52,949 bases of DNA. It comes from Polyangiaceae bacterium (GTDB taxonomy: Bacteria > Myxococcota_A > Polyangia > Polyangiales > Polyangiaceae). Below are positions 10,516-50,298 of the stretch, piece after piece; the stretch's first letter is position 1; each line of letters opens with the position of its first letter. The notes under the pieces were generated by a model, which made no database searches, was not told the origin of the DNA, and saw nothing but the letters and a program-made list of their open reading frames with translations. The stretch spans positions 193,508 through 246,456 of the forward strand of contig JAXLYP010000017.1 of assembly GCA_046351395.1 (NCBI GenBank). Direction: 5' to 3'. The position numbers and the translations under genes were made by a program.

Positions 10516-10516
10516 G

Positions 10517-13779: not shown

Positions 13780-14649
13780 CCGATCGCCGTGCGCGCGGCC
13801 GAGCTCCTCGGCTCGAGTCCGCTGCTCGTGCTCGCGGGCGTGGGCGTGTTCTCGATCGGGCTCGTCCTCGTTCTCGTCGTCCTCGCGAGGTGGATGAGCG
13901 CGCGGGGCCTCGGCTGGCGGAAGGCCCTCTTTCGACGCGCCGCGCGCGCTGTCGGCGCCGCCCCGAGCGCGCGCGCGAGGCTCTCGCGGCTCGTCCGGCT
14001 CGAGTACGAGCTCGTCCACCTGGGACTTGGGCTCGCGCTCCTCGCCGGGCTGGTCGTGTTCGTGGCGCTCGCGGTCTCCGTCGTCGACGACGGCGCAGTC
14101 GCGGCGTTCGACGAGTCGCTCGCGCGTGCGGTCCACCGATCGACGCCGCCCGAGCTCGTGCGCGTCATGCTCGTCGCGACCTCGCTCGGCGGCGGTGAGG
14201 CCGTCCTCGTCGTCGCGGTGGTCGTCGCGGTGGGGCTCCTGGTGCGGCGGCGATGGCACCTCGCCATCGGCTGGATCACGGCGGAGGCGGGCGCGGGCCT
14301 CTTCAACGCGCTCCTCAAGTCGCTCTATCGGCGCGCGCGTCCCACGCTCGACGATCCGTTCACGAGCGCATCCGGGTGGAGCTTCCCGAGCGGACACTCC
14401 ATGGGGACGATCGTCACCGCTGGGATGCTCGCTTATGTGTTCTCCCGGTTCTACCCGCCGGGGTGGCCGCGCTTCGTGGCCGTCTTCCTCGCGACGCTGT
14501 GGACGCTCGTCATTGGGTTCAGCCGCGTGTGCCTCGGCGTCCACTACGCGAGCGACGTGCTCGGAGGGTTCGCCGCGGGCGCGGTGTGGCTCGTCGTTTG
14601 CGTTTCGGGCCTCGAGGTGGCGTTGCGCCCCAATCGCTCGGCCGTTTAG
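13759..14649 (+). CDS. PAP2-family integral-membrane phosphatase
   Basis: All three PAP2 motifs are present: KSLYRRARP, SFPSGHS, SRVCLGVHYASDVLGG, across six hydrophobic segments. Alternative GTG start at 13789. Confidence 0.8.
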   Translation: MSPPNRHPIAVRAAELLGSSPLLVLAGVGVFSIGLVLVLVVLARWMSARGLGWRKALFRRAARAVGAAPSARARLSRLVRLEYELVHLGLGLALLAGLVVFVALAVSVVDDGAVAAFDESLARAVHRSTPPELVRVMLVATSLGGGEAVLVVAVVVAVGLLVRRRWHLAIGWITAEAGAGLFNALLKSLYRRARPTLDDPFTSASGWSFPSGHSMGTIVTAGMLAYVFSRFYPPGWPRFVAVFLATLWTLVIGFSRVCLGVHYASDVLGGFAAGAVWLVVCVSGLEVALRPNRSAV

Positions 14650-14773: not shown

Positions 14774-15790
14774 ATGCCAACCGTCCTGTCGCAACCGCGT
14801 CGTACCGCGCCCGCATTCGCAGCACGTTCGATGTTCTTCGGTGTCTTGATCAATGGGATCGTCCCTTCGTCCGCGCTCGCAGATCCGCAAGTGGACACAG
14901 CGCCGAGCGCTCCGACGGAGAAGGCAACCGCCGCGCCCACGCCGCTCGCCACGAAGAGCGCCGCGGAGAAGAAGCCGGACTCGCTGGATTGGGATCCGCG
15001 TTGGCCGGAGGTGAAACCCTACGAGTACATCCTCACCGGTGTGTTCGCGCTCGCAGCGATCGGTGGACAGGCGATCCCCGGCGGCCCGAGGTGGACGGGG
15101 CACAACGCGTTCGACGACGCGGGCCGCGAGGCGTTGCTCTTGCCGGACTTCGAGGATCAGGAGCGCGCGAAGGACTTCAGCGACGTGGGCCTCGTGATCC
15201 TCGTGAACCAAGCGCTGATCGACAATCTCTTCGTCACGTGGTGGGCGCGTGATCACCCGAAGACCGCATGGCAGCTGTCCGTGATCGACACCGAGACGCT
15301 GGCGTTCAGTATCGGCGTGGACGCGCTCGTCGCCGGCGCGACGGGCCGCGAGCGCCCGTACGTCGAAGCGCTGTGCGATCAGGAGGACCACAAGAATCGC
15401 GGCTACTGCGACGGGAGCAACCGCTACCGAAGCTTCTTCAGCGGACACTCCACGGCCGCGTTCACCCTGGCGGGGCTCACGTGCATCCATCACGCGGAGC
15501 TCGGTATTTACGGCCACCCCGTCGCTGACGCGTTCGCGTGCGGCGGCGCGATGGCGACGGCGACGGGCGTCGCGCTCCTCCGTGTCGCCTCTGATCAGCA
15601 CGATCTCTCGGACGTGCTCGTCGGGGCAGTGTGGGGCACCGCGACCGGGGTCACGCTGCCGTGGCTCCTCCACTACCGGGGCGGGGCGAAGGTCGAAGAG
15701 AAGAAGCCGGACCCGCATGCCGCCGTCGAGGCCCCGCCGCCGGGCGTGGTCGTCACGCCGAGCGGCGCGTACGTCATGGGAGCGTTCTGA
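14774..15790 (+). CDS. Secreted PAP2-superfamily phosphatase
   Basis: Motifs GATGRERPY, SFFSGHS, RVASDQHDLSDVLVG. N-terminal hydrophobic signal; alternative start at the Met at 14831. Paralogue of 16722..17639. Confidence 0.8.
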   Translation: MPTVLSQPRRTAPAFAARSMFFGVLINGIVPSSALADPQVDTAPSAPTEKATAAPTPLATKSAAEKKPDSLDWDPRWPEVKPYEYILTGVFALAAIGGQAIPGGPRWTGHNAFDDAGREALLLPDFEDQERAKDFSDVGLVILVNQALIDNLFVTWWARDHPKTAWQLSVIDTETLAFSIGVDALVAGATGRERPYVEALCDQEDHKNRGYCDGSNRYRSFFSGHSTAAFTLAGLTCIHHAELGIYGHPVADAFACGGAMATATGVALLRVASDQHDLSDVLVGAVWGTATGVTLPWLLHYRGGAKVEEKKPDPHAAVEAPPPGVVVTPSGAYVMGAF

Positions 15791-16721: not shown

Positions 16722-17639
16722 TCAGAACTGCCCGCCCCAGGAGAGCTGCACGGGCGGCCGCGCGGTGACGAGCGGCGCGGACGCCGCCGCGCTCGTGTTC
16801 GGGCCGTCGACGGTCTGCGTGTAGTGCAGGGCGAGGGGGACCGCGAGGCCTACCCCGTACCCGAAGAGGAAGCCGCTGATCGCGTCGCTCATCCAGTGCC
16901 GATCGGAGATGACGCGCATCCCGGCGATGGTGACGGCGAGGGCCGTCGAGCCGACGCACGCGACGACGTCGGGCGCGCCGCCCCCGTAGAGCGGGACATA
17001 GGCGTGGTGGGCGCACGTCAGCCCCGCGCCGACCGCGCTCATCGTCGCGTGACCGCTGAACCAGCTCGCGTTGACGCCGAAGGAGCCACAGTCGTACGCC
17101 CAGCCTTTGTCTGTTTGGCATCCGATCCCGGCTGGGCGCTCCCGCGCGGCGAGCCGGTGGTTCACGCGCATGACGAGATACGCGATCCCGTAGGCCTCGA
17201 GGTTCATCGCCGTCAGCTGCTGGAGCATATCGAGGTTCTCGTCGATCGCCGGGACGAGGACTCCATCGATGAGGACGGGGTAGGCGGCGCTCACGGCGAG
17301 CAAGACGTCGCTCGCGATCTGAATGCCGCGTCGATCCTTAAGCCGCGGCATCGCGACGGCGTCGCGGGCGATCTCGTCGAACAGGATGGGCCCGATCCAC
17401 CGGGGCTCGATGGGCTGTTCGGTCCCGAACTCGATGATGCCCGCGCCGGTGATCGACAGGGCGGTGAGCGTGTACTCGCCCCACACGACGCGCGGGTGGG
17501 ACTCGTCCCAGTGCAGGCGGTGCTCGTCCTTGGCCTGCGCCGCTGCGCGCTCGCATGGCGCGAAAGCTGCGAGCGCCGCGCCCAGAAGGATCGCGTGTTG
17601 GTGTCTGTGCAGCGAGGAGTTCACCAGGGGATCCGTCAC
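16722..17639 (-). CDS. Secreted PAP2-superfamily phosphatase, paralogue of 14774..15790
   Basis: Motifs AARERPAG, WFSGHAT, RVISDRHWMSDAISG. Signal peptide; ends ...SWGGQF*. The ATG overlaps the stop of the upstream small lipoprotein (ATGA). Confidence 0.8.
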   Translation of the reverse strand: MTDPLVNSSLHRHQHAILLGAALAAFAPCERAAAQAKDEHRLHWDESHPRVVWGEYTLTALSITGAGIIEFGTEQPIEPRWIGPILFDEIARDAVAMPRLKDRRGIQIASDVLLAVSAAYPVLIDGVLVPAIDENLDMLQQLTAMNLEAYGIAYLVMRVNHRLAARERPAGIGCQTDKGWAYDCGSFGVNASWFSGHATMSAVGAGLTCAHHAYVPLYGGGAPDVVACVGSTALAVTIAGMRVISDRHWMSDAISGFLFGYGVGLAVPLALHYTQTVDGPNTSAAASAPLVTARPPVQLSWGGQF

Positions 17640-21719: not shown

Positions 21720-23159
21720 ATGAGCAACGCGCCGCGACGATCGTCGAGTCCACCCGATCCCAAAGAGGTCGCCCGGCGCTCCCTCGTCGAACGAGCGCTC
21801 GGGGTGATCACCGAGGTGAGGGCAGGCGAGGGGGGGACCGCACTCCTCATGACGCTCAATGTCTTTCTGCTGCTCACCGCATACTATCTCATCAAGCCGG
21901 TCCGTGAGGGCCTCATCGGGAGCGTGAAGCACGGCCCCGAGTACAAGAGCTACATGGGGGGCGCGGTCGCGCTCGCGCTCTTCGCCATCGTCCCGCTCTA
22001 CGGGATGCTCGCCGCGAGGCTGAAGCGGAACGTGCTCATCTCGAGCGTCTCGCTCTTCTTCGTCGCGAACCTCGTCGGCTTCTGGATGCTCGGCCGCCTC
22101 CCCTGGGTCGCGACCGAGACGGGGGCGACGGTCTATGCGCTCGCGTTCCTCCTCTGGGTGGGCGTGTTCAACCTCATGATCGTCGCGCAGTTCTGGGCGT
22201 TCGCCGCCGACGTGTACACCGACGAGCAGGGGAAGCGGTTGTTCGCGCTCATCGGTCTGGGCGCGTCCGTCGGCGCGGTGATGGGGAGCCTGGTCATGAA
22301 CCGCGTCGTGACCGAGCTCGGCACGGAGCACATGATGCTCGTCGCCGCCGTGACGCTCGCGCTCGCGACGGCGGTGACGCTGCTCATCCATCGGCGCGAG
22401 TCCCGGCGGCCGCGGGCGCCGGACCCGGAGAAGGAGCGGAAACAGCGCGAGGAGAAGGAGGCGAAGCAGAGCAGTCAGGGCGCGTTCTCGCTCGTGCTCC
22501 ACGACCGGTATTTGCTGCTCATCGCGGCGTTCACCGTGCTCTTCCAGATCGTGAACACCAATGGCGAGTTCATCCTCTCGAGCCTCGTGGCGGACGCGTC
22601 GCGCGCCGTGACCGAGACGCGAGAGGAGCAGAAGGCGTGGATCGCCTCGTACTACGGGAGCTTCTTTCTCTGGGTGAACATCGCGGGCGTGGCGATCCAG
22701 ACGTTCCTCGTCTCGCGGATCGTGAAGTGGGGCGGGCTCAAGGTCGGCCTCCTCATCTTCCCCGTCGTCGCGCTCATCAGCGAGGCGGCCATCGCGGTCG
22801 TCCCGGTGCTCCTCCTCGTTCGGATCGGCAAGACGGCGGAGAACTCGCTCGACTATTCGCTCAACAACACGCTCCGCAACGCCCTCTGGCTCCCCACGAC
22901 GACGCGCGCGAAGTACGTCGCGAAGCAGGCGATCGACAGCTTCGTGTCGCGCGTGGGCGACATGGGGTCGGCGCTCGCGATCTTCATCCTCATCGACGCG
23001 CTCCACTTGACCGTGCGAGCGGTCGCGACGCTCAACGCGTGCCTCGTCCTCGCTTGGATCTACGTGTCGATCGAGATCGTCCGCGAGAACGGCAAGCTCA
23101 CCGAGGACGCGAAGGGCAAAGCGCTTTCACGGCTGGAGGCGGCGGGGGCGAGCGCGTGA
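21720..23159 (+). CDS. TLC/NTT-family (Npt1/Npt2-like) nucleotide-transporter-like membrane protein
   Basis: N-terminal signature ...GVITEVRAGEGGTALLMTLNVFLLLTAYYLIKPVREGLIG.... About 12 predicted TM helices and a charged central loop (RRESRRPRAPDPEKERKQREEKEAKQ). The stop overlaps the GTG of the next gene (GTGA). Confidence 0.9.
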   Translation: MSNAPRRSSSPPDPKEVARRSLVERALGVITEVRAGEGGTALLMTLNVFLLLTAYYLIKPVREGLIGSVKHGPEYKSYMGGAVALALFAIVPLYGMLAARLKRNVLISSVSLFFVANLVGFWMLGRLPWVATETGATVYALAFLLWVGVFNLMIVAQFWAFAADVYTDEQGKRLFALIGLGASVGAVMGSLVMNRVVTELGTEHMMLVAAVTLALATAVTLLIHRRESRRPRAPDPEKERKQREEKEAKQSSQGAFSLVLHDRYLLLIAAFTVLFQIVNTNGEFILSSLVADASRAVTETREEQKAWIASYYGSFFLWVNIAGVAIQTFLVSRIVKWGGLKVGLLIFPVVALISEAAIAVVPVLLLVRIGKTAENSLDYSLNNTLRNALWLPTTTRAKYVAKQAIDSFVSRVGDMGSALAIFILIDALHLTVRAVATLNACLVLAWIYVSIEIVRENGKLTEDAKGKALSRLEAAGASA

Positions 23160-24653: not shown

Positions 24654-26060
24654 ATGACCGAAGCGCTACCCGACGACGCCGAGATCTTGGGAACGCTCGA
24701 TGAACTCATCGAGCGCCTTTCGAAGAGCAAGCGCGGCGCTGATCTCCGGAACGCGCTGCACGACGCGAAGCGCTTGAGGAGCGCGACGCTCAAGTGGGGC
24801 ATCATCCCGCCTCCGCCCGATGCGCGGCGCGAGCTGCTCGACCGCGTCGCGCAGCTCCTCGCGCTCGCGGCGGGTGCCCAGGCGGACGGGGACGACGGTG
24901 AGCGTCCGCCGGAGTCGGCGCGGTCGCGGTCTTCGAGGAAGGCGCGCGGCGCGGCCCTCGAGGAGAAGCCCGCGCGTGGCGCAGCGTCGCTCGGTTCGCG
25001 CATCCACGACGAGGCGACGAAGCCCGAGGGGCGGTTTCCGAGCATCCACGACGAGGAGACCGCGCCCCTCCCGAGCAGGCCGCCCACCGCGGCGGAGCGC
25101 CGACGAGGCAAGGCGCGCGCGGAGGGCGCGTATGCGAAGTCGGTGCACGACGAGGACACCGCGCCCGGGCCCGAGGTTCGTGCGGCGCAAGCGGTGGAGG
25201 CGCGCGTGATTCGCCGGCCCGAGATCGCCGACGAGGAGACGGTCCGCGAGGGCTATCGCAAGGCCGCTCCACCGAAGTCGTCTCCCACACCGGTGGCCGC
25301 GCCGCCGTCGAAGGCGCCGTCCGCGCCTCCGCCGAAGGCGCCCTCCCCGACGCCACCGAAGGTGCCGTCTGCGCCTCCGCCGAAGGCGCCCTCCGCACCG
25401 CCGCCGAAGTCGCCGTCCGCGCCCCCTGCACCGCACCCCAAGCTCCAGCGGACGCAGAGCGGCGCGGTCGCGCTCGCGCCGCTCCAGGACCTCGACCTCA
25501 GCGACCTCGAGCTCTTCGCGGCGCCGCCGAGCAAGAGCTCGCTCTCGGCGAGCCCGCAGCTACCGCCGATCGTCATGCCCGCATTGTCCGACGGGGGCGC
25601 CGCGCCCAAGTCGAAGATCGAGGGGTTCAGCACGTCGGTCTCCACGCCCAAGATGGCCGCGGTGCGGCCGCCCCCGTCCAAGCCGACCGAGCCGCTGCCC
25701 GCCGTGAAGGAGGCTTCGGGCGTCACCATCGTGCGCGGGAATGCGTCGGCGTGGCGGCCGCTCCCCGCCGCTCCCGCGGTGCTCGTGCGCACCGTCCAGT
25801 CGACGGCGACGGGCGTGATCGCGCTCGTCAAGCTGCCCGTCTCGGCGCGTGTCCCCTCGAAGCGAGTGGACGGCGAGGTGCAGCTCTTCGTGTTGATTGG
25901 AGGCATCACGCTCGGTCCGCACGAGCTCGCCGCGGGCGACGCGTGTCGCCTCGAGAAGGGCTCGACGCGACAAGCGATCACGACGACGGGCCCCGCGACG
26001 ATCCTCTACGTGGGCCCGAGCCTCGGCGGCGACACGACCGATCCACAGGCCGACGTCTGA
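24654..26060 (+). CDS. Three-part protein: N-terminal helical domain, Pro/Ala/Ser/Lys-rich disordered repeat linker, C-terminal ~140-aa globular domain
   Basis: MTEALPDDAEILGTLDELIERLSK.... Three [RS][IV]HDE[AED]T[KA]P repeats (RIHDEATKPEG / SIHDEETAPLPS / SVHDEDTAPGP), five APPPKAPS-type repeats, then GVTIVRGNASAWRPL...FVLIGGITLGPHELAAGDACRLEKG. Confidence 0.65.
   Translation: MTEALPDDAEILGTLDELIERLSKSKRGADLRNALHDAKRLRSATLKWGIIPPPPDARRELLDRVAQLLALAAGAQADGDDGERPPESARSRSSRKARGAALEEKPARGAASLGSRIHDEATKPEGRFPSIHDEETAPLPSRPPTAAERRRGKARAEGAYAKSVHDEDTAPGPEVRAAQAVEARVIRRPEIADEETVREGYRKAAPPKSSPTPVAAPPSKAPSAPPPKAPSPTPPKVPSAPPPKAPSAPPPKSPSAPPAPHPKLQRTQSGAVALAPLQDLDLSDLELFAAPPSKSSLSASPQLPPIVMPALSDGGAAPKSKIEGFSTSVSTPKMAAVRPPPSKPTEPLPAVKEASGVTIVRGNASAWRPLPAAPAVLVRTVQSTATGVIALVKLPVSARVPSKRVDGEVQLFVLIGGITLGPHELAAGDACRLEKGSTRQAITTTGPATILYVGPSLGGDTTDPQADV
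25300..25435. repeat. Tandem ~24-nt coding repeats (ccgccgaaggcgccctccgcgcct-like) encoding (A/S)PPPK(A/V/S)PS x5
   Basis: Periodicity visible directly in the sequence. Confidence 0.8.
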
Positions 26061-26075
26061 GCGCGGAGGGAACGG

Positions 26076-27797
26076 GTGGCCGACGCGCAGACCGAACGCT
26101 GCGAGGGATGTGGCGCCGAGCTGACCGCGGGCGCCCGCTTCTGCGCGACGTGTGGGCGCCCGGTCGCCGCGCTCGCTCCAACCGAGCTGCACGCCCCGAG
26201 GTTCGACGCGACCCCCGCGATGCGCCTCGCGCCGGGGACGATGCTGGGGAGTTACCGGATCGAGGCGCTCCTCGGCGAAGGCGGGATGGGCGTCGTCTAC
26301 CGCGCGCGCGACGAGGTCATGCACCGCACGGTCGCGCTCAAATGTCTGCACACGAACCTCGCGGGGGACGCGGGGATCCGCCGGCGCTTCGGGCGAGAGG
26401 CGCGCGCGCTCGCGACGGTCGTGCACCCGAACGTCGTGCGCGTGTACGACTTCGTCGATCACGAGCACGTCCCCGCGATCGTCATGGAGCTCGTCGACGG
26501 ACCGAGCCTGTCCGCGCACGTCGCGGCGTGGCGTGAGTCCGTCCCGTTCGAGGAGATCCGCGGCCTCTTCGGGCAGATCCTCGCCGCCGTCGGCCACGGG
26601 CACGACAACGGCATCATCCACCGCGATCTCAAGCCAGACAATGTGCTGCTCGCGCGGGAGGCGCGCGGGCTCCGCCCGAAGGTCGTGGATTTCGGGCTCG
26701 CGAAGATCCTCGAGGGGACGACGTACACCGTCACGGGCGCCCTCCTCGGGACGTGCCGGTACATGGCGCCCGAGCAGGTGCAGGACCCGGAGCGCGCGGA
26801 TCTGCGCGCCGACATCTATTCGCTGGGCGTCACCCTCTATCAGCTCGTGACGGGGAGCGTGCCCTTCGATCGGGCGACCCACTTCGCGGTCATGATGGCG
26901 CACGTCAACGAAGCACCGCGCCCGCCATCCTCGATCCGCGCGGACGTCCCTGCGCTCCTCGAGCGCCTCGTCCTCGACGCGCTCGCGAAGGATCCGAGCG
27001 CGCGCCCTCCCTCGTGCGCCGTGTTCCGCGAGCGGCTCGACGAGGCGCTCGCGGCGTACGAGCCGGAGGACGCACCGCCGGGCTCGCTCCCGCGCGTCGT
27101 GCGAGGGGCGGAGACGGCAGATCTCGTGCTCGTGCCCGAGGGTCCGTTTCTCTTTGGCCCGCACCGGCGCCGCGTCGATTTGGACGCGTTCTACATCGAT
27201 CGGACGCCGGTCACGAACGGCGAGTTCGCCGCGTTCGTGAGGGCCACGCGATATGCGCCGTCGGACGAGGGGAGCGGACGGTTCCTGCATCACTTCCGGG
27301 GTGGGAAGGCGCCCGTCGGCGCGGAGCATCACCCGGTGACGCACGTCTCGTGGACCGACGCGCGGGCGTACGCGACGTGGGCGGGCAAGCGACTCCCGAC
27401 GGAGGCGGAGTGGGAGAAGGCCGCGCGAGGGACGGACGGACGGAGGTACCCATGGGGCCGCGCGGAGCCCACCGCGGATCGCGCGAACTACGGGAAGCTG
27501 AACGGTGGAACGACGCCCGTCACCGCGCACGCCGCGGGAGCGTCACCGTACGGTGTGTTGGATCTTGCGGGCAATGTCTGGGAGTGGTGCGAGGACGTCG
27601 ACGATCCCGCGTTTTACCTCGACGGTCCTACGCGGAACCCGAAGAACGCGCCGCGCGCGGGCGAGCGCGCGCGGCACGTGGTGCGCGGCGGCTCCTGGCT
27701 CTACGGCCCGCGCGCCCTGCGCACGGTGTACCGCGCGAGCTTCGAAGCGCACTATCGCGTCGCGAGCGGCGGATTCCGCTGCGCGCGCTCCGCCTGA
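26076..27797 (+). CDS. Ser/Thr protein kinase with N-terminal zinc ribbon and C-terminal FGE-sulfatase (SUMF1/formylglycine-generating-enzyme-like) domain
   Basis: SD ggaggg lies 5 nt upstream of GTG 26076. CEGCGAEL...CATCG. Kinase motifs GSYRIEALLGEGGMGVVYRA, VALK, HRDLKPDNVLL, DFG, APE. FGE-like domain RTPVTNGEFAAFV...HPVTHVSWTDARAYATWAGKRLPTEAEWEKAARG...GNVWEWC...RGGSW. Confidence 0.9.
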   Translation: MADAQTERCEGCGAELTAGARFCATCGRPVAALAPTELHAPRFDATPAMRLAPGTMLGSYRIEALLGEGGMGVVYRARDEVMHRTVALKCLHTNLAGDAGIRRRFGREARALATVVHPNVVRVYDFVDHEHVPAIVMELVDGPSLSAHVAAWRESVPFEEIRGLFGQILAAVGHGHDNGIIHRDLKPDNVLLAREARGLRPKVVDFGLAKILEGTTYTVTGALLGTCRYMAPEQVQDPERADLRADIYSLGVTLYQLVTGSVPFDRATHFAVMMAHVNEAPRPPSSIRADVPALLERLVLDALAKDPSARPPSCAVFRERLDEALAAYEPEDAPPGSLPRVVRGAETADLVLVPEGPFLFGPHRRRVDLDAFYIDRTPVTNGEFAAFVRATRYAPSDEGSGRFLHHFRGGKAPVGAEHHPVTHVSWTDARAYATWAGKRLPTEAEWEKAARGTDGRRYPWGRAEPTADRANYGKLNGGTTPVTAHAAGASPYGVLDLAGNVWEWCEDVDDPAFYLDGPTRNPKNAPRAGERARHVVRGGSWLYGPRALRTVYRASFEAHYRVASGGFRCARSA

Positions 27798-29636: not shown

Positions 29637-30266
29637 TCAAGGGCAGCCCCCATCGATCACGAGTCCAGTCCGGCCGAGCGGCTCGGCGTCGGGCGTCCAG
29701 TCGAGCCCGTCCGCGAACGACATCACGCCCTCCACGTCCACCGCGCAGGGGGGAGCTGAAATCGCGAGCTTCCCACCGAGCGAGGTCGCGTTCGCGATCT
29801 CGCCGATGGGTGTAGGCGGACCGATCCCGGTCCACGGCGCGCAGTCGTCCGCGTCGTGGGTGACGCGCGCGAACTTGATGAGATCGAGCGGGTATTGCCC
29901 GAGATCGACGACCTCCATCGAGAGCGCGTCGAGCCCGAGCTGGAAGCAGAGATCCCGCGCGTCGTCGCGCTTGAGGATCGCGACGGCCCCGGCGTTCGTG
30001 AAGAGGTTGATGGCGCTGTAGGCGTCGCAGGGACCCGCGCACGATCCACTCCCCGTGCTGCTCGACGCGCTCGCGCTCCCGGCTCCACTTCCGGTCGCGC
30101 TCGAGCCGACGGTCGTTCCGCCCCCATCATCCTCGAGCGTGGCGACGTCGCGACACGCGCCGAGGAGCACAATCGCGATCACGAGGGTCGCCCGCGGCGC
30201 CGTGCGCTCGCGAAGGAGTGCTCCGAGGGAGGTCCCTTGGGGTGCGGTTTCGCCGCGCGCCCTCAT
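29637..30266 (-). CDS. Lipoprotein (Gly/Ser-rich linker plus Cys-containing domain), translationally coupled to the TssC-like gene
   Basis: ATG 30266..30264 overlaps the TssC stop (ATGA). ...TLVIAIVLLGAC (lipobox), GSSATGSGAGSASASSSTGSGSCAGPCDAYSAINLF... Confidence 0.6.
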   Translation of the reverse strand: MRARGETAPQGTSLGALLRERTAPRATLVIAIVLLGACRDVATLEDDGGGTTVGSSATGSGAGSASASSSTGSGSCAGPCDAYSAINLFTNAGAVAILKRDDARDLCFQLGLDALSMEVVDLGQYPLDLIKFARVTHDADDCAPWTGIGPPTPIGEIANATSLGGKLAISAPPCAVDVEGVMSFADGLDWTPDAEPLGRTGLVIDGGCP

Positions 30267-31607
30267 GGATCGAGCGTCCCTTTCAAGCTGAGCGTGAAGA
30301 ACGCGCCCATGTGCTTGAAGTGCGGGCGCAGCCTCAGATCGAAGGAGCGCCACGCCTCGCCGTCGGTCGAGTCGCGCACGATCACCTGCACCTTCCGCAG
30401 CGGCCTTCGCCCCCGGAGCGCGGGGGGCACGACCTCCCGATCGGCGACGTATTGGCCCGCCCAGTCGTTGAGCTCGCGTTCGTCGTCCACTGCCGTCGTC
30501 GCCCATGATGGCTTTTCGACACGCCGAGGGGGCGCGCCCGGGACGAGCGCCTCTGGGTCGTTGATTTGGAAGGAGCGGTGCACCACCTTCAGGTACTGAC
30601 CAATCCTCGTGGAGATGAACACGTAGGGGAGCTCGGTGCCGAGCCGGTGGTTGAACTCGGCGGCGCGCGCCTCCTCCGAGTTGCCGAAGCGCTTGGGCTT
30701 CATGAGCGACCGCGCCGAGAAGAAGCCCGCGGACGTCGCGTCGACGAAGGAGAGGGGAATGAACCCCTCCTCCGACAGATCGTACTCGGTCCGCTCGCCG
30801 AGGTTCGCGTCGAGCGGCGAGATCGCGCCCTCGGGCGCGCGCGGCAGGTCCTCGATCAGGCCGTCCGCGCGCCCGACGATGTTCGGACACCAGCGGTACT
30901 TCGCGAACGACGACGTGAGGCGCGTCGCGAACGCAACGACCGCGAGCCCCCAAGCGAGATCTTCGGCGCGAGCGGTCTCGTCGTACGTGAAGCCCCCGAG
31001 CGTCTCGGTCGCCTCACGGGCAACGGCGAAGGGAGCGCGGAGGAGGAATCGGCCCACGGTGAGCCCCAGGAGGGATGCGCTCGCCTGGTCTCGCAGTGCA
31101 GCGAACGCGCGGTGATGCGCGGCGAAGTGCGCAAGAAGATCGACCGTGCCGATCGCGCGGCGGTCCTCGATCCCGAAGAAGCCTGGTGAGGCGGCCGCGA
31201 TGAAGGGGGCGAGGGAGCACGTCCCGACCTCCGCGATGCGCTCGAGGAGCGTGATGTCCTCCGGCGTGGGGTCGAACTCGAAGTCGGCGAGGATCGCCCC
31301 GTACGGTCGGTCGGTCGCGCCTCGGGCCGTCACCGCAAAGAACGCGCTCTCGCGCGCGGGCGCGCCGGAGCGCACGAGGTCGACGCGGAGCTCGTCGAGC
31401 GTACACGGGTAGAACGCGATCTCGATGTTCTCGCGGAAGTTCGTCCGCTCGACCAGGAACGCGAGGCTCCGCCACGCCCGCTCGAGGCGCTGGAACTTCG
31501 GGTGATGGAGGATCGCGTCGAGCTGCGCGGCGATCCGACGGTCCAGCGAGTCGATGATCGCGTCCGCGCGCGTGGCGGCGAGATCGACGAGGAGCGCATC
31601 ATCGTGC
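30263..31607 (-). CDS. T6SS contractile-sheath large-subunit (TssC/VipB)-like protein, N-terminally short
   Basis: Full-length colinear similarity to VipB: AQLDAILHHPKFQRLERAWRSLAFLVERTNFRENIEIAF..., FAKYRWCPNIVG, LPYVFISTRIGQYLKVVHR, LRLRPHFKHMGAFFTLSLKGTLDP*. Only ~30 aa precede the ILHHP motif, against ~80 in V. cholerae VipB. No tssB lies upstream; the divergent DTW gene starts 68 bp away. Confidence 0.85.
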
Positions 31608-31675
31608 CGTACCATCCTGGCATTCGGACCTGCGCGACCTCGCTTGTCAAGGCACGGTGCGCCGATGAAGGCGCC

Positions 31676-32371
31676 GTGATAACGAGCGTCGTGGACGCGA
31701 CCCCGCCCGCCCCGAAACCCGACTCGACGCCTTGCGAGGTGTGCCGGCGTCCTCGCTTCGCGTGCGTGTGCGACCGCGTCGTCGCTTACCCCACCGAGCG
31801 GCGCGTGTTGATCCTGCAGCATCCGCAGGAGCAGGACGCGCTCCTCGGCACCGCGCAGCTCCTCGCGGCGAGCTTGCCGGCGGCGCGCATCGTCATCGGG
31901 TTGAGCTGGCCGAACCTCGGCGCGGCGCTCGGCGAGCCCGAGGTGGACGTGAAGAAGTGGGCGGTGTTGTTCCCCGATCGCGAAGCGGAAGGCGAGGGCG
32001 TCGCCACGCGCCGCGGAGCTCCGGTGGATCCGCGCGCGCTCTCGGGGATCGTCGTGCTCGATGGCACGTGGTCGAAGGCGAAGGCGCTCTGGTGGCGGAA
32101 CCCGTGGCTCACGAAGCTGCACCGCATGACGCTGAAGCCGAAGCAGCCCTCGATCTACGGCAGGCTGCGAGCGGAGCCGAAGCGCGAATACGTCTCCACG
32201 CTCGAGTCCGTGGGCGCCGCGCTCACGCTCTCGGGCGAACCCCCGGAGATCGAAGCGGGCCTCTCGCGCGTCTTTCGGACGCTCGTGCAGCGTGTCCGAG
32301 ACGCGGACGTCGCCCCCGAGGAGCGCAGGCTTTCGAAGAGCACGCGGCCCCCGCGACGACGGCCGGGCTGA
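31676..32371 (+). CDS. DTW-domain protein (tRNA aminocarboxypropyltransferase-like)
   Basis: Cys-rich N-terminus (CEVCRRPRFACVCDRV) and DTW motif (IVVLDGTWSKAKALWWRNPWL). GTG start at 31676 (alternative 31691). Confidence 0.7.
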   Translation: MITSVVDATPPAPKPDSTPCEVCRRPRFACVCDRVVAYPTERRVLILQHPQEQDALLGTAQLLAASLPAARIVIGLSWPNLGAALGEPEVDVKKWAVLFPDREAEGEGVATRRGAPVDPRALSGIVVLDGTWSKAKALWWRNPWLTKLHRMTLKPKQPSIYGRLRAEPKREYVSTLESVGAALTLSGEPPEIEAGLSRVFRTLVQRVRDADVAPEERRLSKSTRPPRRRPG

Positions 32372-36679: not shown

Positions 36680-37753
36680 GTGACGACCTCCATTCCGCCA
36701 GCGTTCGACGAGGCGCTCGACCCTGCTCCGAGATGTGAGGACGCCGTCGCCATCCTGGACGCGCTCAGCGCTGCGGTGCTCGCGGCGCGCTCCGACGGCG
36801 TCATCACGTGGGCGAACCCATGGGCTGCGCGCGTCCTCCGGCGCTCACGGGCCTCGATCATCGGGCGAAACCTCGCGGATGTGCTGCCTCTCTCGTTCGC
36901 GGTCGGGGAGGACACGCCCTCGGAGCACCGCCGCGGTGAGCTCACTTATCAAGCGGACGACGGCTCCCGTTGTCAGCTCGGATTTTCGCTCGCTCGGCGG
37001 GCCGTCACGGCGCCGGACGAGGTCGCCATCATCGCGCTGTTCCAAGAGATCTCGAGCCTCATCGAGCTGCGACGCCAGCGCGATCGACTCCTCCAGATGG
37101 CGGCGCTCGGGGACGCCCTCCCAGCGGTGCTCCACGAGGTCCGCAACCCGCTCGCGGCGATCACCACGGCGCTGGAGGTTTTGACCGAAGACGAGGGGCC
37201 GCTGCAAGCGGATCTCCACGCGGTTCTGAACGAGGCGCGCCGCGCCACCCTGACGCTCGACGGGCTCGGGGGCCTCGCGCGCGAAACCCACAGTCGGAAG
37301 TGGGAAGCCATCGATCACGCGGTCGCGGAGGCCACCCGAGTGCTCGAACCCACCGCCGCGAGGCGGGGTATTTCCCTTCGAACGACGGGGCCGGCGCTCC
37401 CGCTCCTGCCGCTCGATCGCGCGGCGATCAGCGGCGTGGTGTTCAATCTCGTGCGCAATGCCATCGACGCGTGCGGCGAGGGTGATGTGGTCGCCGTCGA
37501 GGCCCGTTTGCCGTCGCCGAACGAGTTCCTGCTCGAGGTTCGCGACACGGGCCATGGCATGTCCGTTCCCATCGTGAAGCGCTGCACGGAGCTCTTCTTC
37601 ACGACGAAGGATACCGGGTCTGGGATTGGGCTCGCATTGTGCAAGCGGTTCGCGGAGTCGTCGGGAGGATCGCTGGAAGTGGAGAGCGAACTCGGGCGGG
37701 GGACGACGGTATCGGTTCGCGTCGCTCTCCGCACCGACGCACGAGGAGGGTGA
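36680..37753 (+). CDS. Cytoplasmic PAS-domain sensor histidine kinase
   Basis: H-box LHEVRNPLAAI, N-box NLVRNAIDA, DTGHGM, GSGIGLALC. GTG start. Confidence 0.85.
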   Translation: MTTSIPPAFDEALDPAPRCEDAVAILDALSAAVLAARSDGVITWANPWAARVLRRSRASIIGRNLADVLPLSFAVGEDTPSEHRRGELTYQADDGSRCQLGFSLARRAVTAPDEVAIIALFQEISSLIELRRQRDRLLQMAALGDALPAVLHEVRNPLAAITTALEVLTEDEGPLQADLHAVLNEARRATLTLDGLGGLARETHSRKWEAIDHAVAEATRVLEPTAARRGISLRTTGPALPLLPLDRAAISGVVFNLVRNAIDACGEGDVVAVEARLPSPNEFLLEVRDTGHGMSVPIVKRCTELFFTTKDTGSGIGLALCKRFAESSGGSLEVESELGRGTTVSVRVALRTDARGG

Positions 37754-37754
37754 C

Positions 37755-38120
37755 ATGTCACGTGTCGACAACCTGAACAAGATTCTACGTGGGCTGCAGA
37801 GCGCTTCGCCGGACGTCGAGGCGAGCGCGCTCATCTCGGACGATGGGCTCATGATCGCGAGCGCCCTGCCACAGCACATCGACGAGACGCGCGTCGCCGG
37901 GATGAGCGCCACGCTCTCGAGCCTGGGTACGCGCGCGGCGGCCGAGCTCGAGCGCGGCAACGTCGAGGAGGTCCTCGTGCGGGGCTCGAACGGCTATGCC
38001 GTCATGCTCGCCGCGGGGTCCGGGACGCTCCTCTTGGTCCTTGCGAGCAAGCAGGCGAAGCTCGGCCTCATCTTCCTCGACATGCGTCGGGCGGTCGACG
38101 ACATCCGTCGCGTCCTCTAG
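37755..38120 (+). CDS. Roadblock/LC7 (MglB-like) domain protein
   Basis: SD ggaggg lies 4 nt upstream of the ATG. ...LISDDGLMIASAL...LLLVLASKQAKLGLIFLDMRRAVDDI is typical roadblock-domain sequence. Confidence 0.8.
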   Translation: MSRVDNLNKILRGLQSASPDVEASALISDDGLMIASALPQHIDETRVAGMSATLSSLGTRAAAELERGNVEEVLVRGSNGYAVMLAAGSGTLLLVLASKQAKLGLIFLDMRRAVDDIRRVL

Positions 38121-38266
38121 ACCCGTTCGAGAAGCGAGCAGATCCCCGGGCCCGGGCGCGACAAAGCGTCATCGGGGTGACGCCCGAGCGTCATCGTTTT
38201 GACAGTCTTCGCGCGATCCACGCGTTAGAACGTACCCAACAGCCGATCGATAGGAGGGGGTCTTCG

Positions 38267-39026
38267 ATGCCCAATACGATTTTGTTCGATCAAGGTGCCC
38301 ACAAGAACGTCCTGCTCGAGGACGTGTCCGCGGGCAGCCACGCCCGTACAAGCCAATCAGCACGTCATCGTCGACCACGCGTCGGGCATGATCCTCGACC
38401 CGGGCGGACACAAGGTCTACTCGAAGGTCCTCTCCGGCACGCTCGCCACCCTCGGCAAGGCGAAGCTCGAGATCCTGTTCCTGTCGCACCAAGATCCGGA
38501 CATCGTCGCCGCGACGAATGGCTGGCTGATGACCACGGACGCCGTGGGCTACGTCTCCGCGCTGTGGACTCGGTTCGTCCCGCATTTCGGGCTCGATCAC
38601 CTCGTCCAGTCCCGCCTCCTGCCGATCCCGGACGAGGGCATGCGGATGAAGCTGGGCCAGAGCGAGCTGCTCATCCTCCCCGCGCACTTCCTCCACTCGC
38701 CGGGAAACTTCCACGTCTACGACCCCGTCTCGAAGATCCTCTACAGCGGCGATCTCGGGGCATCCATTGGTGGGGATTACGTCGAGGTGACCGACTTCGA
38801 CGCGCACCTCCCACTCATGGCGGGGTTTCACCGGCGCTACATGGCTGGGGGGGCCGCGATGCGCGGCTGGGCGAAGATGGTCCGCCAGTTGCCGATCGAG
38901 ATCATCGCGCCGCAGCACGGGGCGCTGTTTCGCGGGAAGGAGATGGTCGATCGGTTCATTGGATGGTGCGAGGGCATGCAGTGCGGACTGGATGTGATGG
39001 GCGATGGTTACCGCATCCCCGCTTGA
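38267..39026 (+). pseudogene. MBL-fold (ODP/flavodiiron-N-terminal-like) protein with a +1 frameshift near 38340
   Basis: A strong SD (aggaggggg) precedes ATG 38267. The first frame reads MPNTILFDQGAHKNVLLEDVSAGSHA... and then switches to the 38295 frame: ...VQANQHVIVDHASGMILDPGGHKVYS...FLSHQDPDIVAATNGW.... Removing one C from the ccc run at ~38344-38346 restores a continuous protein. Confidence 0.65.
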
Positions 39027-40158
39027 GTCCCCGCGCCGCACCGTGCTCGTCGTGGAGGACGAGCCGATGCTGCGCGCCTCGATGGTCAAGGGGCTCGCGA
39101 AGCTCTCGTCGGTCGCGCTCGTCGACGCCGGCTCGCTGCGAGAGGCGCGGCGACTCGCCGAGCTGCACCGCCCCGTGCTGGTCGTGAGCGATCTCGACCT
39201 GCCCGACGGCTCGGGGATCGAAATGGCGTCGACGCTCGACGAGCTCGGTCTTCGCGTCCCGATCCTGTTCGTGTCGGCCTACGTGCGGGAGTACCAGGGG
39301 CGATTGCCGAAGCGGCCGGGGATCGAGGTCTACGAGAAGCCGCTGCCCCTCGAGCGCCTTCGGAGCGCGGTGGAGGCGCACCTCGGGATCGAAGCCGAGG
39401 CTTCGCCGTTCGGTGTGATCGACTTCGTCCAGCTCGCCGGCATGGGGCGGCGCTCGGTCGTCATCGAGGTGCGAGGCCGGATCGCGGGGAGCGGGCGAAT
39501 CGTCATCCGCGCGGGCGAGGTGTGGTCGGCGCGCGACGAGCGGGGCGAAGGAATGGAAGCGTTCAAGCGCCTCGCGTTCCTTCGGGACGCGGTCGTCACG
39601 TGCCGCTCGTTCGATCGTCGCGACTCGTCTCCTCGCATCATCCAAGGGGGCTGCGAGAGTGTCCTGCTCGAGGCGGCGCGCCAGTACGACGAAGCGGGCG
39701 GGGCGCCGCCGGAGCGCGACGAGCTCGGCGACCTCGACGAGGGCTGGGACTCCCGAGACGCGGGCCGCGGTGACAGCTGGGAAGGCTCCGCGCGGTCGCA
39801 CGACCCCGTCGTCTCGTCCACGCCGGTGCCGCCCGGCCGGCATCGGTCCGAGGTTCGCCCGGTCGTGCCGGAGCCCCGAGGGGAATGGCGCTCCGCGACC
39901 CTGACGCCCGCGGTCGACGAGCCGCCGCCGACTCAGCCCTCGACGCGACTTCGTGACGTCGATCCGCGCGAGCTCGCGACGGTCGCACGGCTCGCGGCGG
40001 GGTTCTCCGACGTGTACGAGCGGGGCGTCGACGCGCTGCTCGCGAAGGACTATCGCAAAGCGTACGCGGCGTTCCTCGAAGCGCGAGAGCTCTCGCCGGA
40101 GGACCGGCGGGTCGAAGCGAACCTCGTCCGCCTCCGAGAGATGGGGTTCGGAACGTGA
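39004..40158 (+). CDS. Response regulator (REC) with a C-terminal DUF4388-like domain and a TPR-like tail
   Basis: REC motifs VLVVEDEP, VVSDLDLPDGSG, K in EKPL. Then FGVIDFVQLAGMGRRSVVIEVRG...GRIVIRAGEVWSA...GMEAFKRLAFL. The stop overlaps the next GTG (GTGA). Confidence 0.8.
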   Translation: MVTASPLESPRRTVLVVEDEPMLRASMVKGLAKLSSVALVDAGSLREARRLAELHRPVLVVSDLDLPDGSGIEMASTLDELGLRVPILFVSAYVREYQGRLPKRPGIEVYEKPLPLERLRSAVEAHLGIEAEASPFGVIDFVQLAGMGRRSVVIEVRGRIAGSGRIVIRAGEVWSARDERGEGMEAFKRLAFLRDAVVTCRSFDRRDSSPRIIQGGCESVLLEAARQYDEAGGAPPERDELGDLDEGWDSRDAGRGDSWEGSARSHDPVVSSTPVPPGRHRSEVRPVVPEPRGEWRSATLTPAVDEPPPTQPSTRLRDVDPRELATVARLAAGFSDVYERGVDALLAKDYRKAYAAFLEARELSPEDRRVEANLVRLREMGFGT

Positions 40159-48427: not shown

Positions 48428-48477
48428 AAGACTCATGCCCCCAAGTTCCCACGTGCGCGAGATGGACACTACTGCGC
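48428..48477. repeat. Conserved ~50-nt element, copy 1 (paired with 50164..50215)
   Basis: gaagactcatgcccccaagttcccacgtgcgcgagatggacactactgcgc versus gaagactcatgcccccaagtcttcttacgtgcgcgagatggacgctattgcgc. Copy 1 overlaps the stop of the 48469..50106 gene and lies ~350 bp upstream of the AraC start. Confidence 0.7.
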
Positions 48478-50106
48478 GGGAAGCTTCAGCGTCTCCGCGC
48501 CGGATCCGTCGTCGCCCTTGCCGCCGGCATCCGATGCACCACCCAGCCCGCCGCCCGCTCGCGTGGACGTGAAGCCAGCGGCCGGTGCCGAGGTCACGTA
48601 GGCGATTGCCAACGAGTGTCCGCCGTGGCCGCCGCCACCCGCGCCGCCATTGCTGCCCTGGCCTCCCTTGCCTCCATCGCAGGCCGTCGGGGTGCCGGCG
48701 CCAGAGCCGGCATTGCCGCCCTTTCCGCCGACCGCACCAAACTGTCCAGCTGCGCCGCTTCCGCCGGCGCCACCCTTGCCGACGGTGAAGCTCACGCCCG
48801 AGAGAGTTGGGGCCGCGCCCAGGACGATCATCCCGATGCTCGCGCCCCCAGCGCCGCCTCCGGGGGCTCCGTGGCCCCCGCAACCGCCCGCGCCGCCGCC
48901 GCCCCTGCTCGCGCCGCGAATGTCTGCGAGAGGCGGCGTCACGTCCTTGAGTCCCTTCGCGCCGCCGCCTCCGCCTCCGAGGCCGGGACGCCCGTCCTCG
49001 CCGACTCCGCCGGAAGCTCCTGCGTAGCCCATCGAGGAGATTGTCCCCGGCAGGGTCGCGTTCGGGCCCGGCATGACGGAGGCGCCGTTGGAGCCCTGAT
49101 GTCCGGGCGCGCAGCCACCCCCCATGTCACCAGGTCCTCCCACGCCATCATTCCCCGCCACAATCGGGGGCGTTGGCGTCGCAGTCCCATCATCACCCTT
49201 TATGCCGTCGCTTGCGACCGCAACGACCTTTCCACCCTCTCCTCCAGCCCCGCCAGTGGTCGTGCAAAACGGGTTCGTCCCCGGGAGTCCACCTGGATTG
49301 GTCATGGTCGGCGTGGTCGTGTTGGCGTCGGCCCCGACGCCGCCCGCGATGGGGGCGGCCATCGAGTTTGTCGGACCGATGTTGTCCGTCGGCGTGGTGC
49401 TGTCCTGTCCCGCGGCAGCGTCGCCCGTCTCCACGTCCACGTCCGCAAACACGGACGGGACCTCGCCCACGATCACTCCAATCGCGCTCGAGCCCGGCGC
49501 CGCGCCCGCAGTCGCAAGGACCTTCAGGCGGTCGACCTCCGTCGTCCCCTGACCATCCGCCAGCCTCAGGCCGATCTCGCCCGCATCCGGCTCGAGCGTG
49601 GTGCGCGCGTCCGCCGCCTTGATCTTGTACCCCGCCGAACAATCCAGGCCGCCATACACGACCACCCCCGCCGGAAGCACGATGCCGCTCGTGTCCGTCA
49701 GCGCGCCCTCACAGACATAGATCGTCTTGCCCGCCGTCCACGCGATGACCGCGGCGCTCAACGTCTTGAGGGGCGCCGCCATCGTCCCCGCCTGCATGTT
49801 GTCGCCCCCCACCGGGTCGACGAACACCCCGCACGAGTCCCCCTTCGTCGGACCGCTCGTCAGAGACACGGCGCAGTCCATCGACACCCCCGTGCTGCTC
49901 GACGTCATCGTCGCGGATGACGAATTCGTCATGCTCGCCGCCGTCGTACTCGAGGTCGCGCCTCCTGCGCCCCCGGAGCAAGGAGCCGAGTGATCCGCGC
50001 AGGAGTCCGTGGACTCCGAGGGGCACCCGGCCATGAGGCTCGCGAGCGCGAGCGACGCCACGAGCGCGCAGGCGCTGGTCTTGATGTGCGAACGAGGAAG
50101 CGTCAT
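48469..50106 (-). CDS. Gly-rich repeat lipoprotein
   Basis: MTLPRSHIKTSACALVASLALASLMAGC. Long GGxGG / PGxxG-rich C-terminal half. Paralogue of 50299..51897. Confidence 0.7.
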   Translation of the reverse strand: MTLPRSHIKTSACALVASLALASLMAGCPSESTDSCADHSAPCSGGAGGATSSTTAASMTNSSSATMTSSSTGVSMDCAVSLTSGPTKGDSCGVFVDPVGGDNMQAGTMAAPLKTLSAAVIAWTAGKTIYVCEGALTDTSGIVLPAGVVVYGGLDCSAGYKIKAADARTTLEPDAGEIGLRLADGQGTTEVDRLKVLATAGAAPGSSAIGVIVGEVPSVFADVDVETGDAAAGQDSTTPTDNIGPTNSMAAPIAGGVGADANTTTPTMTNPGGLPGTNPFCTTTGGAGGEGGKVVAVASDGIKGDDGTATPTPPIVAGNDGVGGPGDMGGGCAPGHQGSNGASVMPGPNATLPGTISSMGYAGASGGVGEDGRPGLGGGGGGAKGLKDVTPPLADIRGASRGGGGAGGCGGHGAPGGGAGGASIGMIVLGAAPTLSGVSFTVGKGGAGGSGAAGQFGAVGGKGGNAGSGAGTPTACDGGKGGQGSNGGAGGGGHGGHSLAIAYVTSAPAAGFTSTRAGGGLGGASDAGGKGDDGSGAETLKLPAQ

Positions 50107-50163
50107 GGGTGTTCTCCGAACGGAGCGGCAGTTGGAGGGCGGAGGAGTGTGCGTGCGCGGACG

Positions 50164-50215
50164 AAGACTCATGCCCCCAAGTCTTCTTACGTGCGCGAGA
50201 TGGACGCTATTGCGC
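50164..50215. repeat. Conserved ~50-nt element, copy 2, ~60 nt upstream of the Gly-rich lipoprotein start
   Basis: See the feature at 48428..48477. On the minus strand it reads ...GCGCAATAGCGTCCATCTCGCGCACGTAAGAAGACTTGGGGGCATGAGTCTTC, ending in GGGGG-ATG. Confidence 0.7.
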
Positions 50216-50298
50216 CGAAAGTTAAAATTCTCGTGCCGCGGCCTCCTACGCTCGAGTCCAACCCCAACGAATCCCATGGTCGAGACTGCCGAAGCCAT

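Follow-up and report, generated by a model that had tools for sequence, protein, structure and literature searches.

The 52,949-nucleotide stretch of DNA analysed here (hereafter the window) comes from a Polyangiaceae bacterium (NCBI GenBank assembly GCA_046351395.1, contig JAXLYP010000017.1, forward-strand positions 193,508 to 246,456) and encodes a paralogue of TssC (VipB), the large subunit of the contractile sheath of type VI secretion systems (T6SS). On sequence comparison, this focal protein belongs with other short, stand-alone TssC paralogues of Polyangiaceae-type myxobacteria in a rare clade that is monophyletic. The clade is apparently undescribed, and literature searches for orphan tssC, N-terminally shortened TssC and Sorangium tssC gave no relevant description among the papers searched. 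The family label is already attached in NCBI to the identical protein (MFO0616352.1, 'MAG: type VI secretion system contractile sheath large subunit [Polyangiaceae bacterium]', from a contig of 246 kb; MAG, metagenome-assembled genome), and hence the assignment to TssC is not itself new.

Results

The window encodes a short TssC

By its profile matches and predicted fold, the focal gene is a true tssC. The Pfam family VipB (PF05943) matches the protein at 9e-64 over profile positions 1–300 of 301, VipB_2 (PF18945) matches at 3.5e-19, and the NCBIfam model TIGR03355 reaches 302.5 bits where the cut-off is 271.5, its best stretch beginning at model position 46 of 473. The strong, near full-length TssC homology proposed in the initial annotation, which had been made from the sequence alone, thus stands. 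In a PDB sequence search the protein aligns with residues 66–492 of Myxococcus xanthus TssC (E ~1e-89) and with the whole ordered part of Vibrio cholerae VipB (3J9G chain B, ordered from about residue 61), and over the whole ordered core it is 38–48% identical to the canonical T6SS-i TssC/VipB proteins (V. cholerae VipB 3J9G/5MXN; M. xanthus TssC 5URW/5URX). An AlphaFold2 (AF2) model of the monomer is of moderate confidence (predicted local distance difference test, pLDDT, 65; predicted template modelling score, pTM, 0.67). Queried with this model, Foldseek placed 5urx/3j9g at the top and also returned 5myu and 5urw (E 4e-29 to 4e-28; TM-score ~0.6, with 0.62 for 5urx/3j9g), while matches to phage and pyocin sheaths were far weaker (E 2.5e-4 or worse). 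Third-position GC is high throughout the open reading frame (ORF), and the window as a whole has a G+C content of ~70%. The start had earlier been set at 31607, which is 8 nt off and out of frame; the true start is at 31615 (Table 1).

The N terminus is indeed short, as the initial annotation had noted, with about 50 canonical residues absent. All 80 canonical TssCs from a genome scan of many phyla are 485–512 residues long, against 429–455 residues in the short clade. A longer N terminus hidden by a mis-called start is ruled out, because none of the 67 codons upstream of 31615 is an in-frame ATG, GTG or TTG and nothing TssC-like lies upstream in any frame (tblastn with full-length canonical TssC, which matches from query residue 68 on). 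Any further in-frame start would lie more than 140 bp inside the neighbouring DTW-domain gene.

What has been lost can be read from the domain definitions of published sheath work (PMC5807055, PMC4632598). Residues 15–28 of VipB form the ClpV-binding helix, and the TssC N terminus serves ClpV recognition (PMC4632598), whereas the S66–M86 helix of TssC1 is, together with the C-terminal helix of TssB, part of the tri-helical bundle of domain 3 (PMC5807055). Residues 6–36 of the focal protein correspond to TssC1 S66–M86, and the canonical sequence N-terminal of that helix is absent in its entirety, namely the ClpV-binding helix and the second domain-3 helix (the equivalent of TssC1 E39–E54). The TssB-facing third domain-3 helix ranks among the best conserved parts of the short clade. 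The missing residues had been taken to contribute to the TssB interface, which needs correction. Since the helix that packs against TssB is retained and the one that binds ClpV is missing, the N-terminal loss is mainly that of a recycling handle. An internal deletion that spared the ClpV helix was also considered, because the opening residues of the protein, DDALLVDLAATR, resemble canonical GSLLDEILAETK, and is unsupported: short N-termini score like shuffled sequence with a canonical N-terminal hidden Markov model (HMM), 12–80% of the shuffles reaching the real scores.

Beyond the N terminus, the protein has a lineage-specific insertion that replaces the canonical QREQIGxWKE motif; in alignments with PDB chains it falls in a gap opposite M. 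xanthus TssC as well as VipB. The model has low pLDDT there (residues 352–354 and 362–372), and the motif is replaced throughout the short clade. The C terminus is conserved, and AF2 predicts strands at residues 406–415, 423–431 and 442–448, equivalent to the handshake strands described for the sheath's inner layer (PMC5807055).

The gene stands alone. No T6SS gene beyond tssC was found in the 52.9 kb by tblastn, either with Sorangium TssB, TssK, TssL, TssM, TagF, VgrG, DUF2169, Tox-PAAR and RHS queries or with all ORFs of at least 70 residues within 10 kb of canonical tssC at 11 Polyangiaceae loci; these query sets detected no VgrG, Hcp or PAAR gene in the window. A TssB HMM drawn from 80 canonical loci found no TssB-like ORF among all window ORFs, and Pfam scans of ~42 window genes returned kinases, PAP2 phosphatases, transporters, regulators and the like, and no other T6SS family. 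In the two tblastn searches and the TssB HMM run, the only match in the window apart from TssC was one unrelated FGE-sulfatase domain. As a positive control, TssB was found directly upstream of every canonical TssC tested. The absence of an adjacent tssB or other T6SS core gene, first remarked for the immediate neighbourhood, therefore extends over the whole window, and tssB is missing from the 21 kb beyond the tssC start as well as from the 29 kb beyond its stop.

A clade of short TssC paralogues

Database searches recovered short TssCs of 431–444 residues from Sorangium genomes and metagenomes, each 48–50% identical to the focal protein. In a profile search of 5.8 billion clusters only 11 clusters at 90% identity contained short TssCs, with ~16 Sorangium sequences against a canonical cluster of 235 members, and an exhaustive HMMER search of 50%-identity representatives added seven divergent short lineages (437–455 residues), all metagenomic. 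In a neighbour-joining (NJ) tree that included seven fusions of TssB with TssC and, from many phyla, 21 canonical TssCs, 15 short representatives, the focal protein among them, form one group in 97 of 100 bootstraps. The focal N terminus aligns with those of P0002–P0094 and P0149–P0192, which have a common start just before the third domain-3 helix, and members of the clade have derived states in common at canonical invariant positions, for example S96R.

The complete genomes of So ce291, So ce1335, So ce1000 and So ce302 each carry a short copy and a canonical TssC of 494 residues. In So ce291 the canonical cluster (tssK-tssL-tssM-tagF-tssB-tssC; locus L002) lies ~5 Mb from the short copy (L001). 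No tssB was detected near any of the seven other short-TssC loci in the DNA examined, which reached 10 kb per side in the four complete genomes and much less on small contigs. Small same-strand ORFs upstream of the short tssC in L089 and L090 were considered as short TssBs and dismissed, being unrelated to TssB and to each other.

Two further groups of sequences came to light. P0194, P0300 and P0301, from Polyangiaceae MAGs, are another short TssC-like lineage (423–436 residues) that has lost the RYRWCPNI motif and is placed by the NJ tree outside the main short clade; it may have been shortened independently or may represent a branch that is more degenerate. P0153, P0155, P0156, P0157, P0163 and P0171 are single chains in which an N-terminal part of TssB is fused to TssC, and in P0153 (550 residues) TssB, to about residue 125, is joined straight to the third TssC helix, with most of domain 3 missing. 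Such chains could be natural fusions or artefacts of assembly or gene calling.

Selection on the short clade

Canonical Polyangiaceae TssCs are 81–98% identical to one another, against 48–60% for the short lineages. Nei–Gojobori ratios of non-synonymous to synonymous substitution (dN/dS) are 0.27–0.37 for Sorangium short copies and 0.07–0.19 for canonical copies from overlapping genomes, and the short clade is under relaxed purifying selection. Taking as canonical invariants the 196 positions at least 95% invariant in 80 canonical proteins, the focal protein keeps 115 (including 10 that fall in gaps) and the short clade overall keeps 80; most of the lost positions have turned variable instead of fixing a different residue. 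The retained blocks comprise the third domain-3 helix and, after it, the FQxLExAWRGL helix, LPRFLLR, SFARYRWCPNI, EEGRAAExNYRLGTQLPY and the C-terminal RPHFKxMGAFFTL strands; the fold core also persists, and long stretches are relaxed. At positions conserved in the rest of the clade, the focal protein agrees at 79 of 84 (94%; clade range 81–98%). A 99.3%-identical strain variant (locus L085, Logan SRR14234089) carries the same TssC-lipoprotein pair, and its TssC differs by three synonymous and two non-synonymous changes. Because dN/dS, the retention of conserved positions and the intact strain variant agree, the focal TssC is indicated to be a maintained, much less constrained protein and not a pseudogene.

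The initial annotation had allowed for a T6SS remnant, which is unlikely, since the gene lies within a monophyletic group of stand-alone, short TssCs on which purifying selection acts. A non-functional relic, meaning a tssC duplicate shorn of its 5′ end and of tssB and heading for loss, is likewise improbable. Although the family is as rare and patchy as the cluster counts above show, evolves three-fold faster than canonical TssC and has lost its usual downstream partner (see below) in the window and in So ce291, with the focal copy retaining the fewest canonical invariants, at least 15 of its lineages, at ≤50% identity, have intact ORFs and its dN/dS is ~0.3, not ~1. Furthermore, the focal protein keeps its 94% of clade-conserved positions despite a long branch, still exceeds the curated TIGR03355 cut-off and has the high third-position GC noted above along its ORF.

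A conserved downstream gene

The sole conserved neighbour of the short tssC is a downstream gene of ~245 codons with two ExxH motifs. Its product gives weak, sub-threshold matches of the rubrerythrin/EncB type, and the assignment as ferritin-like lies below every curated cut-off. The two genes are joined by ATGA in L003, L004, L087, L088 and L090, and in L089 the ferritin-like gene begins 5 nt downstream of the short tssC; the L089 and L090 contigs carry only the N-terminal 65 and 41 residues, respectively, of the ferritin-like protein. In So ce291 (L001:11308–11768) this gene is broken by an internal deletion and a frameshift, leaving an N-terminal 'MIDLATDDP...' in one frame and the second ExxH half in another, while the short tssC upstream is intact. 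No ferritin-like homologue occurs in the window, and a search of metagenomes with the ferritin-like alignment recovered only an already-known contig.

The flanks of the pair vary, with VgrG/RHS islands at two loci and housekeeping genes at others. Linkage to VgrG is ruled out as a conserved trait, since it is present in L001 and L004 and absent from L003, L087, L088 and the window. Because the flanks otherwise differ between loci, the short tssC/ferritin-like pair behaves as a small movable cassette, which is undescribed.

A pair of this kind raises the possibility, which we consider less probable than a role in the T6SS, that the short TssC is a T6SS-independent, repurposed sheath-fold protein, for example a polymeric scaffold or carrier, with an ATGA-coupled ferritin-like (di-iron, two ExxH motifs) partner that has been exchanged for a lipoprotein in the window. 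Doubtful to a slightly greater degree is a version in which the short clade has been freed of both TssB and the T6SS, for example as a filament or tubule that assembles by itself and serves to carry or organise a ferritin-like enzyme of the di-iron kind, the window then being a case in which the partner was swapped for the lipoprotein at the same ATGA. Repurposing would fit a pair that is kept across deep divergence (~52% TssC identity) and in the unrelated contexts of L003, L004, L087, L088, L089 and L090, with a partner under purifying selection (dN/dS 0.16–0.31) that gives EncB/rubrerythrin-type matches, however weak, with no tssB in the DNA examined around any family locus and with ~60% of the canonical invariants lost. 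TssC in solved sheaths is, however, completed by interlaced TssB strands (PMC5807055), for which no substitute is evident, and the T6SS-specific, TssB-facing helix of domain 3 is among the parts that the clade conserves best. The short TssC also stays intact without the partner in So ce291 and in the window, and the ferritin-like assignment itself remains under all curated cut-offs.

The lipoprotein gene of the window

In the window, the stop of tssC overlaps at ATGA with the start of a gene for a predicted 209-residue lipoprotein, an overlap already seen in the initial annotation. The lipoprotein has no Pfam or NCBIfam match at E 0.01 or better. Its sequence gives no support to an identity as TssJ (T6SS-SciN), and its AF2 model (pLDDT 29) is unusable; homology to the ferritin-like partner was likewise ruled out by sequence comparison. 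Only two homologues occur in the 5.8 billion clusters, one from the near-identical strain and one, 58% identical, from another Polyangiaceae MAG. The same database contains no TssC 50–100% identical to the focal protein, and judging by this content the MAG with the 58% homologue apparently has no annotated orthologous TssC.

A comparison of the junction across L001, L003, L004, L087, L088, L090 and L085 shows the ATGA to be ancestral to the short-TssC family and older than the lipoprotein. Since it predates the lipoprotein, the coupling says little about function and is best read as a cassette junction inherited after gene replacement; the lipoprotein is then a secondary neighbour, not a conserved partner. 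An envelope-associated role had been suggested on the strength of the coupling and is unsupported, because the ancestral ATGA normally leads into the ferritin-like gene, to which the lipoprotein is not homologous. An envelope module, in which the TssC paralogue would act at the membrane with an ATGA-coupled, TssJ-like lipoprotein, is for these reasons very unlikely: the same-strand 4-bp overlap is real and recurs in the near-identical strain, but the junction is older than the lipoprotein, which has no TssJ (T6SS-SciN) or other family match, is unrelated to the usual partner of the family and has its 58% homologue in a MAG for which the database holds no matching short TssC. Its strain differences are, moreover, mostly non-synonymous and clustered in the N-terminal leader.

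The leader of the lipoprotein differs between the strains in a further respect. At codon 22 (window position 30202) the L085 variant (Logan SRR14234089) has ATG instead of ACG, and a start there gives a textbook 16-residue lipoprotein signal peptide (MAPRAALVIAIVLLGA-C). Over the whole lipoprotein ORF, L085 and the window differ at eight positions. Five of these differences are non-synonymous, and the leader contains four of the five.

Table 1 Coordinates of the features discussed; positions are those of the window unless a locus is named.
Feature	Position	Strand	Basis and remarks
Short stand-alone TssC/VipB paralogue	30263–31615	−	450 aa; ATG at 31615, stop ending at 30263, sequence read directly; Pfam, TIGR03355, PDB matches, Foldseek
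Third N-terminal domain-3 helix, residues 6–36	31508–31600	−	Alignments; AF2 helix at 6–36
Lineage-specific insertion, ~19–24 residues (~349–372)	30500–30571	−	Canonical TssC has QREQIGxWKE there
C-terminal beta-strands, residues 406–448, including RPHFKHMGAFFTLSL	30272–30400	−	Counterparts of the handshake strands in the sheath's inner layer; conserved
ATGA stop/start overlap, TssC paralogue/downstream ORF	30263–30266	−	Sequence read directly
Predicted lipoprotein, 209 aa	29637–30266	−	Signal peptide, lipobox LLGA-C38, Ser/Gly-rich linker, Cys-containing C-terminal domain
Divergent intergenic region, 60 bp	31616–31675	.	Between TssC paralogue and DTW gene; too small for tssB
Divergent DTW-domain gene	31676–32371	+	GTG start; Pfam DTW 1.4e-38; neighbour only, outside the system
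Ferritin-like gene	L003:5874–6605; L004:11329–12072; L087:11308–12051; L088:11305–12042; L089:1687–1881; L090:1723–1845		

Other genes of the window

Upstream of tssC lies the divergent DTW-domain gene that the initial annotation had recorded; its distance is 60 bp from the true start, in place of the 68 bp counted from the earlier coordinate. No sigma-70-like site was found in the intergenic region 31616–31675, and scans for promoters and terminators, tRNAs and Rfam families gave nothing informative. The DTW gene is absent among the called genes listed at other short-TssC loci.

Elsewhere in the window, two transporters match the TLC ATP/ADP transporter family (7693–10518, minus strand; 21888–23159, plus strand), one of them a 941-residue protein with HEAT repeats, and three genes of the PAP2 phosphatase superfamily lie within 4 kb (13780–14649 and 15068–15790, plus strand; 16722–17543, minus strand). 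The ORF at 24744–26060 (plus strand), which contains a long region of Pro-rich repeats (PPPKAPSAPPPK...), lies immediately upstream of the gene for a Ser/Thr kinase with a fused FGE-sulfatase domain (26076–27797). A signalling cluster on the plus strand (36995–40158) encodes a histidine kinase, a Roadblock/LC7 (MglB-like) protein, an ODP-family protein with a metallo-beta-lactamase fold and a response regulator with DUF4388. Towards the end of the window, two tandem paralogous ORFs of 609 and 532 residues (48469–50298 and 50299–51897, minus strand) resemble secreted proteins or lipoproteins, have linkers rich in Ser/Thr and long C-terminal regions rich in Gly (GGxGG repeats), and coincide with a sharp change in GC skew and a lower G+C content; Pfam gave no match for 48469–49917 of the first.

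Discussion

We tentatively favour a reading in which the focal protein is an intact and functional accessory or alternative sheath subunit that lacks the ClpV handle and takes its TssB in trans, a partner encoded elsewhere being our best mechanistic guess. In domain 2 of solved sheaths, five strands of TssC are interlaced with two from TssB, and the N-terminal strand of TssB joins the handshake sheet of the inner layer (PMC5807055). Because the sheets of TssC domains 1 and 2 are completed by TssB strands, and because the focal protein keeps the handshake strands and the TssB-facing helix with no tssB gene of its own, the short TssC would pair in trans with the TssB of a canonical T6SS encoded elsewhere in the genome. 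The resulting sheath-type protomers could polymerise but would offer no handle by which ClpV recognises and unfolds the contracted sheath. As an accessory or alternative subunit, the short TssC may then tune the stability or recycling of the sheath, as opposed to being a decaying relic. It appears to be independent of the ferritin-like partner, being intact where that partner is pseudogenised (L001) or replaced (the window).

Several points weigh against such a subunit. Only 80 of the 196 canonical invariants are kept in the clade, so that ~60% are lost and mostly now variable, which is hard to square with a machine as conserved as one whose canonical TssC is 81–98% identical across Polyangiaceae. 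The conserved operon partner is ferritin-like and not a T6SS component, most short-TssC loci are unlinked to a T6SS, and in Sorangium, in which almost every genome appears to possess a canonical T6SS, the presence of one beside the short copy carries no information. With its pLDDT of 65, the AF2 model of the monomer is only moderate.

The focal protein shares with canonical TssC the HMM family and predicted fold, the third domain-3 helix, the RYRWCPNI-type motif and the C-terminal handshake strands, and differs in the ~50 missing N-terminal residues, the want of an upstream tssB and of a surrounding T6SS cluster, its 115 of 196 invariants, the 19–24-residue insertion and an approximately three times faster evolution. 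With the other short TssCs of Sorangium and Polyangiaceae (for example So ce291, So ce1335 and So ce1000; 'TssC' in NCBI) it has in common the clade, the N-terminal boundary, the lack of tssB and the ATGA junction, although identity is ~50% and theirs is followed by the ferritin-like gene of ~245 codons where the window has a non-homologous lipoprotein gene. Pseudomonas aeruginosa H1 TssC1 and Francisella IglB, from T6SS variants whose ClpV recognition is altered, have a full-length N-terminal region and lie in complete T6SS clusters beside tssB or iglA. Both of them, TssC1 together with TagJ, set a precedent for a flexible TssC N terminus and ClpV handle (PMC4632598, PMC5807055). The sheaths of R-type pyocins and phage tails, which consist of domains 1 and 2 only and are never recycled, offer an analogy for the absent ClpV handle and reduced outer layer (PMC5807055), while the focal protein is of the T6SS type, still has a single helix of domain 3 and, judged by homology, still depends on a second, TssB-like chain. 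Orphan hcp/vgrG/PAAR islands are comparable in that T6SS structural genes lie away from the main cluster, and two Sorangium short copies do lie near VgrG islands; published islands nevertheless hold tube, spike and effector genes and not the sheath (PMC13098142), and the window has no VgrG, Hcp or PAAR gene.

T6SS phylogenies and detectors usually take TssC only from near-complete clusters, and one recent survey admits no cluster of fewer than 10 components and defines orphan islands by hcp, vgrG and PAAR (PMC13098142). Stand-alone sheath genes escape such surveys because TssC is counted only inside near-complete clusters. The carriers of the short TssC include the complete genomes of the named strains So ce291, So ce1000, So ce1335 and So ce302, which should make the family experimentally tractable. 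Should the short TssC assemble together with canonical TssB, it would offer a naturally occurring sheath subunit that has no ClpV handle and with which to probe how the stability and turnover of the sheath are tuned. Should it function in the absence of TssB, it would represent the first T6SS sheath protein exapted to another function.

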